The notes under the pieces are model-generated. The model was not told where the DNA came from. It saw nothing but the letters and a program-made list of their open reading frames with translations, and ran no database searches. Positions 1,806 to 45,067 of a stretch of DNA of 64,000 nucleotides are shown here, one piece after another (position 1 is the first letter of the stretch; each line of letters opens with the position of its first letter). The stretch lies in sequence record MW822008.1, one strand, 5' to 3'. The translations under genes were made by a program, and so were the position numbers. Source of the stretch: Escherichia phage BF17.

Positions 1806-3971
<2,166 letters not shown>

Positions 3972-38863: not shown

Positions 38864-39213
<350 letters not shown>

Positions 39214-39226
39214 CGAGGAATCCAAA

Positions 39227-39424
39227 GTGACTAAAGCAGAACTTGTAGCATTATTGGAATCATATCCCGATGATGCATGTATTGAAGTTGTTCATAGTGC
39301 GAGACATTTTGACATTGAAGATGTAGTACGTTATAATGATAAAGGTGTACTCATCATGGAACTATGTATTGGTGAAATGAAAACTGTACCCGAATCAGAA
39401 AAACGTAAAAATAGTAAACCGTAA
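39227..39424 (+). CDS. hypothetical small protein (GTG start)
   Basis: ORF track; RBS gagga. Confidence 0.45.
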   Translation: MTKAELVALLESYPDDACIEVVHSARHFDIEDVVRYNDKGVLIMELCIGEMKTVPESEKRKNSKP

Positions 39425-39434
39425 GGAAAATAAA

Positions 39435-39653
39435 ATGGAATCTACTCTATTAGAAGTTATTAACTCATTAAACGCTGGCGACAATGTTCAAGTACTCCTT
39501 CAGGGATACCGTGTAAAAGGTTCAGTAGTTTTAGTTAATGATACCACTGTTGTTGTAACTGAAACTAACCCGTTTGACAGTAATGAACTTGCTAATATCC
39601 ATATTGATATTAAAAGTATTATTGGTGTTGGTGTAACTAAACCACAAGAATAA
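39435..39653 (+). CDS. hypothetical small protein
   Basis: ORF track; RBS aaggaaaa. Confidence 0.5.
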   Translation: MESTLLEVINSLNAGDNVQVLLQGYRVKGSVVLVNDTTVVVTETNPFDSNELANIHIDIKSIIGVGVTKPQE

Positions 39654-39674
39654 CAATTGTTATTGGGGATTACT

Positions 39675-39947
39675 ATGCATTTTGAAAAATTCAATACAAA
39701 TCGTAACACACGCATTGACGTTCTTTATGAAACACAAGACTCAATAAGCATTCGTACACGTAGTGGTGATGTATATCATGACTGTACTATTGGTTGGGAA
39801 CAGGGAAGAACACGTAGTGCAGAATTCGATAACTATCGCTTCTACCAAGGGGACACCACAATCTGGCCTGAAGACGTAGAAGATATTGCGTTTGAAGATG
39901 AACATAAAGATGAATTTATAAAATTTAATCCCAAAACCGAATCATAA
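39675..39947 (+). CDS. hypothetical small protein
   Basis: ATG 39675 preferred over ORF-track 39657. Confidence 0.45.
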   Translation: MHFEKFNTNRNTRIDVLYETQDSISIRTRSGDVYHDCTIGWEQGRTRSAEFDNYRFYQGDTTIWPEDVEDIAFEDEHKDEFIKFNPKTES

Positions 39948-39964
39948 ATATTGGAACAGACTAT

Positions 39965-40080
<116 letters not shown>

Positions 40081-40084
40081 AAAT

Positions 40085-40170
<86 letters not shown>

Positions 40171-40187
40171 CAATTAAAGGTTAAACC

Positions 40188-40348
<161 letters not shown>

Positions 40349-40352
<4 letters not shown>

Positions 40353-40509
40353 CACATGAAGAATGGATGAATGACATTAATTTTAGATATTCGGGTATCG
40401 GTAAATGGCTAAAGTATCATTGGGAATTCATTTCAGAGCCACATCTGTATGATAAACTTATCAACGATCCAGCATATGAAATGTACTTAATTGAACTACT
40501 GGTACGAAT

Positions 40510-40513
<4 letters not shown>
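40349..40513 (+). CDS. MTHEEWM mini-protein, copy 2 (54 aa)
   Basis: Own translation MTHEEWMNDINFRYSGIGKWLKYHWEFISEPHLYDKLINDPAYEMYLIELLVRI; ATGA overlaps. Confidence 0.55.
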
Positions 40514-40681
<168 letters not shown>

Positions 40682-40682
40682 G

Positions 40683-41136
<454 letters not shown>

Positions 41137-41164
41137 GTATCTTAACAACAGAAGGTATATTGAA

Positions 41165-41404
41165 ATGGGTAAGTATTTTGTGAGTTATAGTTATAATGTA
41201 TCACGAAAGATTCCACGTGGTGACGGAATGGGATGGTCTTATGATGCATATACTTTAAATGAGTCATGTATCATCGAATTACAAGAAAAAGACCTTGACA
41301 TTTTAAAAATCAAACAATATATTCTTGATGTTGAATTGGCACATCGTACTGATACCTATCCAGATGTAAACAACATCAGCATCTTAGTACTAACCAAAGT
41401 ATAA
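41165..41404 (+). CDS. hypothetical small protein
   Basis: ATG 41165 downstream of promoter; ORF-track 41135 start lies in promoter. Confidence 0.45.
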   Translation: MGKYFVSYSYNVSRKIPRGDGMGWSYDAYTLNESCIIELQEKDLDILKIKQYILDVELAHRTDTYPDVNNISILVLTKV

Positions 41405-41483
41405 GATAAAAAGAACTTTACTAAATAATTCCACTGGAGATTAATATGTTTAAAGATGAACGTCCAGATTTGTAAAAAGTACT

Positions 41484-41511
41484 TGAATAAATAATTCAGT
41501 ACTGATATAAT
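41484..41511 (+). promoter_or_regulatory. early promoter with CAGTACTG, heading an ORF-poor region
   Basis: ttgaat 41484-41489, cagtactg, extended -10 tgatataat 41503-41511. Confidence 0.5.
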
Positions 41512-41519
41512 GAATTCCA

Positions 41520-41870
41520 CAATCAGACGTATATGGTGTAAGTTACGTCGATGTAATCCAGAACAAGATCTCTGGTACTCTAGGAAGTGGTGAATGTTAA
41601 CCTAGACGGGTTTGATAATTGGACGATAGGCAATTATTACTTGACTAGCAGGTTTAAACTAGAGGTGACCGTCCTTCACCAAACTGGAAAACCGGATGGA
41701 CTTTTATTTAAAAGGGTAAGGCGTGGAAATATGTTTACAGAAGTTGCTTTTAGTAGCCTGTACGCCCCACGTCAAGGTAGTCGAAAGGTAAGTTAAAACG
41801 GGTGGTTATAAAGCTGAATTAACAGCGGCGTTTAAAAGCGTCACCATCCATTTTTTTTTAATTAAAGTTG
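41520..41870 (+). ncRNA. candidate structured non-coding RNA (unclassified)
   Basis: About 350 nt after a promoter with no ATG-initiated ORF of 60 aa or more and no RBS; ends near a T8 run. Confidence 0.3.
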
Positions 41871-41875
41871 GTGAT

Positions 41876-42685
<810 letters not shown>

Positions 42686-42709
42686 ACGAAATTACAATAG
42701 GAAATTAAA

Positions 42710-42895
42710 ATGCAACTTTTAATTCTTTCAATATTGTATATTATTATAATGGTTCCGATATCAATACGTTTAATTACAGTTGAACGATTTTTATCGAAAC
42801 ATGGAAATAGATCTATGATCTTTGTACCAATCGGGTTGATATTGTTTGGTATATTTTCATTTATAATGGGAATTAACGCTACATTCATTTCATAG
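42710..42895 (+). CDS. small membrane protein
   Basis: Two TM helices; RBS aggaaa. Confidence 0.45.
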   Translation: MQLLILSILYIIIMVPISIRLITVERFLSKHGNRSMIFVPIGLILFGIFSFIMGINATFIS

Positions 42896-42904
42896 GAAAC
42901 AAAT

Positions 42905-43435
<531 letters not shown>

Positions 43436-43480
43436 GATTCCCGATTCAGTAGCTTATAAAGCAGTTCCGTGTGTGCCTAT

Positions 43481-43533
<53 letters not shown>

Positions 43534-43534
43534 T

Positions 43535-43572
<38 letters not shown>

Positions 43573-43591
43573 AGAGGTACTTCGAGTATGC

Positions 43592-43658
<67 letters not shown>

Positions 43659-43733
43659 TAATTGACATATCATTGAATGGGGTGTATTATGGTTCAAGAA
43701 GAAAACTGGGGTTTTTAACCTAACGAGGTCATT

Positions 43734-43876
<143 letters not shown>

Positions 43877-43917
43877 AATGCGAAAGAGTATAGAGACTTG
43901 TTGGTTATCTTACTTCT

Positions 43918-44000
<83 letters not shown>

Positions 44001-44003
44001 TCA

Positions 44004-44076
<73 letters not shown>

Positions 44077-44093
44077 CAAAATAAAGGTACACT

Positions 44094-44510
44094 ATGAAAT
44101 ACAACATTGTCAAAATGGTGAACTACGTATTAAAAAACAACGCATGGTCACTGCATGATGTACAATTAGAAGATATTGGTGAAGTTAGAGTTTTTTGCTA
44201 TGATGGCGATTTGAACGAAACCACTGATTTGAGTAAATGTTTTAATATTTTTCTTGGTTATGAAATCAATAATCATTTTTATTCATTTGATGTGTATTTT
44301 GAACGAGTTAAAATCAGAATTGCTAATGTAAATAGTGATTATTATGACACTAGAATTGAATTGAATTTTGACGATATTGATACTGAAGAAAAATTCTTTC
44401 AGTACTGTCTCGTAAACGATCCAAATGGATTGACATTTGAGGACATTAAAGCTATACTTATAGTTCAAAGATTAATTCCAGAAGAGGTTATAAATCCCTT
44501 TAATGACTAG
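44094..44510 (+). CDS. family-A paralog
   Basis: TEEKFFQYCLVND. Confidence 0.6.
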   Translation: MKYNIVKMVNYVLKNNAWSLHDVQLEDIGEVRVFCYDGDLNETTDLSKCFNIFLGYEINNHFYSFDVYFERVKIRIANVNSDYYDTRIELNFDDIDTEEKFFQYCLVNDPNGLTFEDIKAILIVQRLIPEEVINPFND

Positions 44511-44862
44511 TTTAATAACTCGTATAATGCAAGATGTTCGTAAGAATCTTAATACTGGTAATTTTGATGATCCTAACATAAAAATATTATGTTATGATGG
44601 ATTCACCCTAGTACATCCATCAGAATCTAATAATTTATACATAGTATATACTTCTCCTAATCTTTTGTATCGATTTGATTTATATACTACAATGGCTAAG
44701 ATAACATTAGGTGTTTCTAAGGAGCCAATTTTTATAGCAGTACGTGATTTTGAGTACACAGAAGAGTCATTATTCCAGTACTCAATGGTAAATGACATTG
44801 GTGACTTGACATTAGAAGAGATAAATGTTATAGTTGGTATGTGTCGTTTGATTAATCCATAA
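44503..44862 (+). CDS. family-A paralog
   Basis: TEESLFQYSMVND. Confidence 0.6.
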   Translation: MTSLITRIMQDVRKNLNTGNFDDPNIKILCYDGFTLVHPSESNNLYIVYTSPNLLYRFDLYTTMAKITLGVSKEPIFIAVRDFEYTEESLFQYSMVNDIGDLTLEEINVIVGMCRLINP

Positions 44863-44875
44863 CTCGGAGCTTAAT

Positions 44876-45067
44876 ATGTTTTTGAATTTGTTATGCTTAT
44901 TTGGTCGTACATTGGTTCTTGCTATTATTCATACACCTGGTATTCGTAATTATGTTTCTTATGAATTTAAGAAAAATTACCACAACAATACTGAAGTTCG
45001 TGCAACTAAGATGTGCAAAGACTTCAATGGAGATGTTCCACCATTCAAGAAGTACGAGGATGAATAA
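44876..45067 (+). CDS. hypothetical small protein
   Basis: ORF track; RBS ggagc. Confidence 0.45.
   Translation: MFLNLLCLFGRTLVLAIIHTPGIRNYVSYEFKKNYHNNTEVRATKMCKDFNGDVPPFKKYEDE

Follow-up and report, generated by a model that had tools for sequence, protein, structure and literature searches.

Two structured non-coding RNAs in the tRNA region of Escherichia phage BF17, one of them shared by unrelated phages

Stable RNAs of phage tRNA clusters and the BF17 locus

Stable RNAs encoded in the tRNA clusters of virulent phages have been known since the 1970s and are unexplained; they include species 1 and 2 of T4 (rnaC and rnaD) and RNAI, III, IV, 1, 2, 2H, 3 and X of T5. Those of T4 are presumably released by tRNA-processing enzymes. 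Here we describe a related kind of locus in Escherichia phage BF17 (sequence record MW822008.1), of which a stretch of 64,000 nt, called the window below, was analyzed. Positions 41405-41875 of the window were found, with strong support, to encode two structured non-coding RNAs on the + strand, RNA A (41513-41701) and RNA B (41716-41859). The initial annotation, made without database searches, had proposed a promoter-driven structured RNA beside the tRNA genes instead of a protein gene, and this core idea was borne out by strong covariation and by the lack of conservation of the 69-aa open reading frame (ORF) in the region. Its reading of a single RNA had to be divided: the RNA is structured, but the two modules A and B occur separately in other phages. 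The locus lies in the tRNA region of the window, where ARAGORN and Rfam located six tRNA genes at 39991-44077, all on the + strand. Its G+C content was 0.40-0.42, against approximately 0.30 in the flanks, and blastn gave 96-99% identity of the region to the 121Q/PBECO4/slurp01 group of ~350-kb coliphages (Asteriusvirus).

In its location RNA A agrees with the stable RNAs of T4 and T5, as it is situated in a tRNA cluster and co-oriented with it. GenBank annotation places rnaC and rnaD of T4 and eight T5 'stable RNAs with unknown functions' in tRNA regions; like RNA A they are encoded on the tRNA strand, abut tRNA genes and are dispensable. The analogy to T4 drawn by the initial annotation therefore held for the tRNA-cluster context, but not for homology, since no likeness in sequence or structure to RNA A was found. 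The RNA A covariance model (R1) had no match in T4 69500-73500, which contains rnaC/rnaD, or in T5 24000-50000, which contains the eight annotated stable RNAs, and blastn of RNA A and RNA B against the T4 locus returned nothing. T4 rnaC carries a tRNA-like T-arm, CCGGGUUCGAAUCCCGG, whereas RNA A has none. RNA A also exceeds them in size, contains three pseudoknots and occurs across phage families, while the T4 and T5 RNAs are lineage-specific.

Two other groups of phage RNAs are comparable. ROOL and GOLLD, which lie near phage tRNA islands, have been analyzed by cryo-electron microscopy (PMC12286853). They resemble RNA A in being complex RNAs with several pseudoknots, encoded by phages or prophages near tRNA islands and having no partner protein. 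However, they measure 500-800 nt or longer and form homo-oligomeric cages, compared to 189 nt for RNA A and ~145 nt for RNA B, and they belong mainly to Firmicutes, Actinobacteria and prophages, whereas RNA A was found only in virulent phages of gamma-proteobacteria and has no Rfam match. Non-coding RNAs (ncRNAs) of the Pseudomonas jumbo phage PA5oct make up as much as ~5% of phage reads (PMC7318152). The PA5oct ncRNA001 and ncRNA002 are abundant ORF-free transcripts of a jumbo phage related to 121Q and RaK2, but they do not lie in a tRNA array and are not homologous to RNA A; R1 did not match either of them.

A known class missed by sequence models, such as a degenerate tRNA or tmRNA, a group I intron, RNase P RNA or a homologue of T4 rnaC/rnaD or of the T5 RNAs, would suit a position among tRNA genes, the very context of the T4 and T5 stable RNAs, but was considered very unlikely in view of the negative ARAGORN, Rfam and R1 searches. 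With Rfam 15 at gathering thresholds, only the six tRNAs were found in the whole window. A cmscan of 41300-42000 against 4,227 Rfam families at E<=10 gave only two junk matches (E>=4), SpF56 with 17 bits (threshold 80) and SNORD45 with 16 bits (threshold 42). The families checked included group I intron, tmRNA, RNase P, 6S, ROOL, GOLLD, Y RNA-like, riboswitches and self-cleaving ribozymes, and Rfam 15 detected nothing relevant in the divergent RNA A members L065 and L013 either. ARAGORN called no tRNA in 41405-41875 and no tmRNA in the window; group I intron and tmRNA, two classes raised by the initial annotation, were negative for the locus. The T-arm motif is absent from both RNAs, and RNA A lacks an acceptor stem and CCA as well. 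The helix topology of RNA A (PK-A, an H-type pseudoknot and PK-C; see below) is not known to match any of these classes. In the literature searched no description of RNA A was found, with overlap with a catalogue of 10,006 csRNAs (PMC10690425) left unchecked. The kind of element, a stable RNA in a phage tRNA cluster, is known, while the RNA A family is apparently undescribed.

Some other assignments were considered but found no support: RNase P-like CR-I/CR-V motifs, T-box-like UGGN loops, a CsrA-type GGA sponge and an HDV- or hatchet-like 5'-cleaving ribozyme. Shine-Dalgarno mimicry by GAGGUGA was also rejected, as this sequence lies in a covarying stem and changes to GGUAA, GGUUA or GGUCU.

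Fold and covariation of RNA A

RNA A (~189 nt) was modeled as six hairpins and three pseudoknots, and R1 found a single copy of it in the window, scoring 212 bits. Twenty distinct sequences, from six annotated phage taxa and metagenomic contigs, were aligned. The first pseudoknot, PK-A, joins the 5' tail (CCAC, 41517-41520) to GUGG (41587-41590) in the loop of hairpin H3. It was paired in 94% of cells of the MAFFT alignment, and CCAC/GUGG is replaced by CCUC/GAGG in Klebsiella phage KP13-16 and contig L022, GCAC/GUGC in Aeromonas phages, CUACA/UGUAG in L065 and CUCAU/AUGAG in L064, the last two being divergent members. H1 (41522-41531 with 41544-41552) consists of AUCAGACGUA and UACGUCGAU around the loop UAUGGUGUAAGU; its inner pairs covary (CG 9, GC 5, UA 2, AU 1 at one position; UA 12, GC 5 at another). 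H2 (CCAGA, 41558-41562, with UCUGG, 41571-41575) was the least well aligned helix, with 64% of cells paired. It varies in length, has clade variants CCG/CGG and CCCACA/UGUGGG, and is absent in L064.

H3 (UCUAGG, 41579-41584, with CCUAGA, 41601-41606) encloses the 16-nt loop that holds the PK-A 3' strand, showed compensatory changes in all six pairs and was paired in 99% of cells. It is followed by a near-invariant CGGG (41607-41610; CGGU in Shigella phage SdyM006) and by H4 (41614-41621 with 41631-41638, GAUAAUUG and CAAUUAUU), in which five of eight pairs changed in a compensatory manner. GACGAUA was present in the H4 loop of all homologues, L064 and L065 among them; in the Aeromonas phages and L064 an insertion of 4-5 nt displaces it. 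Next comes an H-type pseudoknot formed by S1 (ACUUG, 41639-41643, with CAGGU, 41649-41653) and S2 (CUAG, 41645-41648, with CUAG, 41659-41662), with an L1 of 1 nt and UUAAA as L3. Both stems were 100% paired, with AU 10, CG 7 and CG 10, AU 4, GC 3 at positions of S1 and UA 12, AU 5 and AU 14, GC 2 at positions of S2. The repeats ctagacg (41602-41608) and gactagc (41643-41649) seen in the initial annotation were recovered here as the 3' strand of H3 and as part of S1/S2, respectively. Around the H-type pseudoknot the core motif reads UGAC-NN-GCAG ... AAC-NN-GAGG. H6 (GGUGA, 41664-41668, with UCACC, 41676-41680; counts GC 11, AU 4, UA 2) occurs as GGUGA, GGUAA, GGUUA or, in L065, GGUCU (with AGACC), each with its complement. 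Its loop forms PK-C, GUCC (41671-41674) pairing with the 3'-terminal GGAC (41698-41701), which was paired in 98.5% of cells and varies as GUCC/GGAC, ACCC/GGGU, GCCC/GGGC and AUCC/GGAU. The window copy contains the family core, namely H3, CGGG, H4 with its GACGAUA loop, the H-type pseudoknot and PK-A, in a register shared with 19 other members.

Conservation of structure among homologous regions, a check suggested at the outset, was evaluated on a structure-blind MAFFT alignment of 17 sequences with 50 pairs in 9 helices. RNAalifold proposed 29 pairs from this alignment, 17 of them compensatory; some helices and the three pseudoknots were added to the RNAalifold pairs by inspection, and the whole set was then tested. 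Standard pairs occupied 90.3% of 831 cells, compared to 30-42% when the 3' partners were slid by 1-3 columns. Double-sided changes were present in 27 of the 50 pairs vs 5-11 in the slid controls, and the covariation score was 0.407 vs at most 0.114. The three pseudoknots were also examined on the R1 model alignment of all 20 sequences, where 92.7% of cells paired vs 19-48% in slid controls; as R1 contains no pseudoknots, their columns in the model alignment provide an independent check. The frequent G-U pairs fix the RNA strand as +.

Approximately 50 positions of RNA A were invariant, many of them outside helices (GACGAUA, UGAC, GCAG, AGAGGU, CCUU, ACCAAAC and GAUGG). Such conservation is characteristic of RNAs that adopt a defined tertiary structure and contain a binding or active site. 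Pseudoknots enclose both termini, which would be expected of an RNA whose ends are set by trimming and have to withstand exonucleases.

The substitution pattern also bears on a protein product. As the initial annotation had stated, the GTG-initiated 69-aa ORF at 41587..41796 is the sole + strand ORF of at least 30 aa inside 41520-41860, and several depositors have annotated a hypothetical protein here. However, this ORF has no ribosome-binding site (RBS) and straddles the boundary between two modules that are found separately. Despite 81-92% nucleotide conservation, it is broken in Klebsiella phage RaK2 by an inserted promoter into unrelated ORFs of 50 and 45 aa, and in Proteus phage PM2 only 20 codons of it are left. 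Substitutions across it maintain + strand base pairing, with G-U pairs among those kept, and are compensatory for the structure. We judged that it is not a gene, and that a 69-aa protein is the functional product of the locus is hardly credible.

RNA A is preceded by a predicted sigma-70-type promoter, placed at 41484-41511 in the initial annotation and confirmed by a promoter scan at 41483-41511 (+). The -35 hexamer TTGAAT (41483-41488) is separated by a 17-nt spacer, within the 16-18 nt expected for sigma-70, from the TG-extended -10 hexamer TATAAT (41506-41511); together they match 10 of 12 hexamer positions. This promoter is conserved in 121Q and in metagenome contig L019. The octamer AATTCCAC, the first letters of RNA A, is also present at 41427-41434.

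Distribution in tRNA arrays and possible role of RNA A

RNA A was found in 121Q-like and RaK2-like jumbo phages, in T4-like phages of Proteus, Morganella, Shigella and Aeromonas, in T5-like Proteus phages and in a phi92-like Klebsiella phage. By blastn, the full 350 nt (A and B) were ~81% conserved in Klebsiella jumbo phages of the RaK2/K64-1 type. Only 41512-41700 was shared, with 85-92% identity and without similarity in the flanks, with T4-like phages (Straboviridae: Proteus PM2 and Pm5461, Morganella Mm5, Shigella SdyM_006) and T5-like phages (Demerecviridae: Proteus phages 1, 2 and M4H10_20). Conservation was weaker in Klebsiella KP13-16 (Stephanstirmvirinae) and ~20 T4-like Aeromonas phages. 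A pattern scan of IMG/VR added the two divergent members, L065 (88.6 bits), upstream of a tRNA array, and L064 (25 bits, E ~1e-5 to 1e-4), which starts at the last base of a tRNA-Leu. The family search with R1 was confined to pattern-seeded subsets.

Every homologue was located within a tRNA array and on the tRNA strand, and most begin 0-3 nt after the upstream tRNA. This spacing was observed in PM2 (tRNA-Gly ending at 2997, RNA A 3001-3192, tRNA-Asp from 3199), SdyM006 (tRNA-Gly ending at 2500, RNA A from 2501, tRNA-Asp downstream), Proteus phage 1 (tRNA-Leu ending at 2499, RNA A from 2501, tRNA-Ser downstream), KP13-16 (tRNA-Leu ending at 2433, RNA A from 2433, tRNA-Ser downstream) and the Aeromonas Ceceduovirus phages AP1, AS-zj, CC2 and P19 (tRNA-Pro ending at 345-349, RNA A from 349, tRNA-Thr downstream), as well as in ZPAH1, L021b, L022 and L064. 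A downstream tRNA followed within ~100 nt in all these cases except ZPAH1, L021b and L064. Contig L022 has RNA A between tRNA-Leu and tRNA-Met, and in contig L021 two diverged copies flank a tRNA-Arg. The upstream tRNA is replaced by a promoter in the window and L019, and by a copy of element X (see below) in RaK2 and contig L020.

This arrangement raises the question of whether RNA A and a tRNA-like element X are cis-acting elements that direct or punctuate the maturation of neighboring tRNAs, for example by presenting the 3' end of the upstream tRNA or by blocking exonucleases, with no function as free RNAs. RNA A abuts the CCA end of the upstream tRNA in many lineages, and in RaK2 and L020 the same position is taken by element X with its 7-bp acceptor-like stem. 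The tRNAs themselves, however, vary (Gly, Leu, Arg or Pro upstream; Asp, Ser, Thr, Met or Glu downstream), RNA A follows a promoter in the window and L019 and a coding sequence (CDS) in Mm5, and most phage tRNA arrays do not have it. Moreover, ~50 invariant nucleotides and three pseudoknots exceed the needs of a spacer or a processing signal. We therefore regard a purely cis-acting role as unlikely.

The similarity ends exactly at the ends of RNA A while the flanking genes and the identities of the tRNAs differ, indicating that RNA A moves as a unit on its own. Outside phages it was absent from the collections searched. The first search pattern had no match among bacterial genomes, one from each of 185,579 bacterial species; a relaxed pattern gave 34 matches in bacterial genomes, approximately the number expected by chance, and all 34 failed the R1 model. 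With blastn, RNA A had no match in 5,426 E. coli genomes and a single weak match of 31 nt (E 0.3) in PLSDB plasmids. On the basis of these E. coli, plasmid and bacterial-genome searches, a host or plasmid origin of RNA A was rejected.

More than 60 GenBank records were matched by blastn, and none of them annotates an RNA; the locus is a 'hypothetical protein' or blank, and the covariance model would correct these genomes. Two annotations near homologues were also noted. In Aeromonas phage 65 the hypothetical CDS 65p135 (2243-2443 of the analyzed segment) runs into the 5' portion of the RNA A copy at 2390-2582 and, given this overlap, is probably over-called at its 3' end or spurious. In Morganella phage vB_Mm5 (597-915 of the analyzed segment), GenBank puts four tRNAs on the strand opposite to that called by ARAGORN, which is the strand of RNA A; the deposit probably contains a strand error.

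We propose that RNA A is a stable, structured, trans-acting non-coding RNA of a new family, with a probability of roughly 0.8. It would be transcribed together with the tRNAs early in infection, either from an early-type sigma-70 promoter or by read-through. Host tRNA-processing enzymes would cut it out: its 5' end would result from 3' maturation of the tRNA upstream, and its 3' end from RNase P cleavage of the next tRNA and exonuclease trimming, or from termination at element X. Trimming would stop at the pseudoknotted ends, allowing RNA A to accumulate as a nuclease-resistant RNA. Because it has moved between unrelated phages without any constant neighbor gene, it most likely acts in trans on a target shared among hosts. 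Such a target, common to Enterobacterales and Aeromonas hosts, could be translation, the metabolism of tRNA or a defence directed at RNA or tRNA, with RNA A acting as a binder, decoy or sponge or, with less likelihood, as a ribozyme. The spread over jumbo, T4-like, T5-like and phi92-like phages likewise argues for a portable, host-directed function.

A more specific reading was also considered. Phage tRNA arrays have been linked to escape from tRNA-targeting defences, which makes an RNA traveling with them a candidate RNA-based counter-measure. RNA A could be an RNA-only counter-defence or takeover device that works either as a ribozyme or by sequestering, as a decoy or sponge, a host factor such as a component of translation or a defence nuclease that targets tRNA or RNA, with the ~50 invariant nucleotides, held by the three pseudoknots, forming an active site or a high-affinity surface. 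We offer this only tentatively; if true, it would represent a new class of self-contained functional RNA exchanged horizontally together with phage tRNA genes. The well-defined, covarying triple-pseudoknot fold suits mutational and structural work, and RNA A provides a structurally defined and genetically tractable entry to the old question of phage stable RNAs.

Several points weigh against the proposal of two functional structured RNAs and a trans-acting RNA A. The folding energy of single sequences was no better than that of shuffled ones (z = -0.87 for A, -1.64 for B and -1.23 for the whole region), so that the evidence for structure is comparative and not thermodynamic; the fold predicted for RNA A from a single sequence disagreed with the helices supported by covariation. 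In the covariation test, none of 500 shuffles reached the observed values, but the 20 sequences fall into few clades and the shuffle statistics overstate their independence; more reliance can be placed on the slid controls and on how many different pair types occur. For the same reason an all-against-all search of column covariation for further tertiary pairs was uninformative. The structural support for RNA B, which comes from 4-5 distinct sequences, is thin and weaker than that for RNA A. The promoter raises a difficulty of its own. It had been described as heading the RNA, and the site exists, but the relation is not a simple one: in the window and 121Q the -10 hexamer ends 1 nt before the conserved AAUUCCAC at the 5' end of RNA A, and a start 6-8 nt downstream (~41517-41519) would fall inside this conserved end and clip part of the PK-A strand. 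Either read-through transcripts supply the full RNA A or the window copy works with a shortened 5' end. In L019 the gap between the -10 hexamer and the conserved end measures 6 nt, and the start would coincide exactly with that end. Finally, the stability, processing sites and trans action of RNA A were all inferred, and the data point to no particular target or activity.

RNA B, element X and the repeated promoter box

RNA B (41716-41859, +, ~145 nt) consists of a long hairpin, the terminator-like three-way junction called element X and a run of nine T. Its 5' domain (41716-41799) contains the long irregular hairpin (41720-41773), in which GGCGUGG...CCACGUC encloses UACAG/CUGUA and GUUGCU/AGUAGC, followed by a small hairpin with a GAAA loop. 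RNAalifold, applied to the four full-length sequences and, for the 5' hairpin, to five, recovered both hairpins and element X; it showed four compensatory pairs in the 5' hairpin, including changes shared with Kuravirus. The second half of the locus (41706-41862) was found only in two genera of jumbo phages, while its first ~55 nt also occur in the ~76-kb Kuravirus coliphages.

RNA B is independent of RNA A in several genomes. JNE01 has RNA B without A, and EJP2 has A without B. A TATAAT box stands before RNA B in RaK2, L019 and L020; in RaK2 a TTGAAC-17-TATAAT promoter is inserted between the modules, and in L019 they are separated by a further, putative promoter-driven RNA and a tRNA-Arg. 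Owing to this separate occurrence and to the promoter of RNA B, A and B were treated as two RNAs.

Element X (41800-41849, +), at the 3' end of RNA B, is a three-way junction with an outer 7-bp stem, GGGUGGU/ACCAUCC, and two inner hairpins of 4 bp, GCUG-AAUUAA-CAGC and GGCG-UUUAAAAG-CGUC. Seven copies were aligned, three from RaK2, three from L020 and one from the window. Both the outer stem (GGGUGG/CCAUCC, GGAUAG/CUAUCC, GGAUGA/UUAUCC) and an inner stem (GGCG/CGUC, GACU/AGUC, GACA/UGUC, AACA/UGUU) covaried. A single A separates element X from the T9 run at 41851-41859, a probable transcription stop; the initial annotation had counted eight T at 41862-41869, ~10 nt too far to the right. Element X with T9 was not called by the terminator scan, because its stem is not a simple G+C-rich hairpin but closes a three-way junction. 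In RaK2 and L020, copies lie after tRNA genes, at the end of RNA B and directly upstream of RNA A. The RaK2 copy directly upstream of RNA A leaves no room for a promoter, suggesting that it is leaky or a processing signal. As judged from sequence and position, element X behaves as a terminator or punctuation module. From its 7-bp stem and its tRNA-replacing position in RaK2, one may conjecture that processing enzymes handle it like a tRNA. A wider distribution of element X was not supported, as the seven IMG/VR matches traced back to a single coding sequence.

In the window the order of promoter, structured RNA, terminator-like element with T9 and, 17 nt further on, the ORF at 41876-42247 is that of a leader, riboswitch or attenuator in which A and B would be the sensor and X with T9 the regulated terminator. 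This order is not kept elsewhere: in most other lineages RNA A lies between tRNA genes with no downstream ORF, RaK2, L019 and L020 have RNA B as a unit of its own behind a promoter, and element X also follows tRNA genes. In addition, the Asteriusvirus phage Sharanji has the same downstream gene behind the same promoter without A, B or X. Regulation of the downstream ORF is accordingly a highly improbable explanation of the locus.

The promoter of RNA A is part of a ~30-nt box, cTTGAcTAAATAgTTCAGTACTGnTATAAT, present in three copies on the + strand, at 41097-41132, 41478-41511 and 42238-42272. These precede separate small units, an ORF, RNA A and, directly, a tRNA-Ser, respectively. Promoter-like sites as a class were not enriched in 39000-45000 (25 found vs 29 expected). 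In L019, RNA A, tRNA-Arg and RNA B each stand behind this box, and a variant of it precedes a putative ~165-nt RNA. Modular cassettes flanked by promoters (mobile regulatory cassettes) are known in T4-type phages, and the likeness is that each small RNA or tRNA here stands behind a copy of the box; the cassette model covers the movement of the modules, but not the function of the RNA. The boxes look like recombination substrates for the gain and loss of cassettes.

Loss has occurred in sister phages. Sharanji, G17, ECO103 4-12-1 and EC22.5-2, all Asteriusvirus, matched only the promoter and the first 37 nt of RNA A. In Sharanji, the one inspected, the sequence jumps after these 37 nt to the RBS of the next gene, and B and X are gone; the upstream ORF 41135-41404 is missing too, and two promoter boxes are fused. 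A deletion whose left end joins two boxes fits recombination between repeated promoters driving gain and loss. Since four sister genomes are without A and B, both are accessory, at least on E. coli K-12. Phages without RNA A (Sharanji, G17) and with it (121Q, PBECO4) are natural variants in one genus, all infecting E. coli.

Two further regions in other genomes may encode RNAs. In L019 (775-600, minus strand), the interval separating RNA A from tRNA-Arg contains a promoter box and, behind it, ~165 nt free of ORFs. A long-range stem of 24 nt, UUUUAUCAACGGUGAGUAACAUUG / CAAUGUUACUCACCAUUGAUAAAA, closes this stretch, which has no copy in the window and is a candidate for another small RNA of these jumbo phages. 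The Kuravirus phages XT32 (1230-1870 of segment L008) and FH3 (357-1005 of segment L060) share a ~640-nt, G+C-rich, ORF-free region that is 97% conserved between them and includes a hairpin homologous to the RNA B 5' hairpin. Its 3' end, GCGUAGGUCCGAACCCUAC-ACCUGUA-ACCA, resembles a T-arm, acceptor and CCA, and the T-stem shows a compensatory change. Neither ARAGORN nor Rfam called anything here, and the region is a candidate large ncRNA.

Other features were observed in the tRNA region of the window. Three tandem paralogous ORFs of 54 aa at 40188-40674 (+), each starting with MTHEEWM and successively overlapping by 4 nt, lie between a tRNA-Ser and the locus and are probably the 'family-A genes' of the initial annotation. 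Between ORF 41135-41404 and the RNA A promoter is a nine-codon ORF, MFKDERPDL*, at 41447-41476 (+), with GGAG 7 nt upstream. A stretch of 537 nt without a convincing ORF, at 43387-43923 (+), precedes two tRNA-Thr genes; it has no Rfam match and is conserved within Asteriusvirus only (83-98%), where it is annotated as assorted hypothetical proteins. A tRNA-like cloverleaf at 39083-39152 (+) was called by neither ARAGORN nor Rfam. Its acceptor-like stem, GCGGCAU/AUGCCGC, is 7 bp long, its T-arm reads GUCGA-UUCGAUU-UCGAC, and CUUCCGA forms the 7-nt loop of an anticodon-like stem, GGUGAAA/UUUCCACC, that is longer than normal. It has no CCA, and a 92% identical copy follows the tRNA-Leu in L019.

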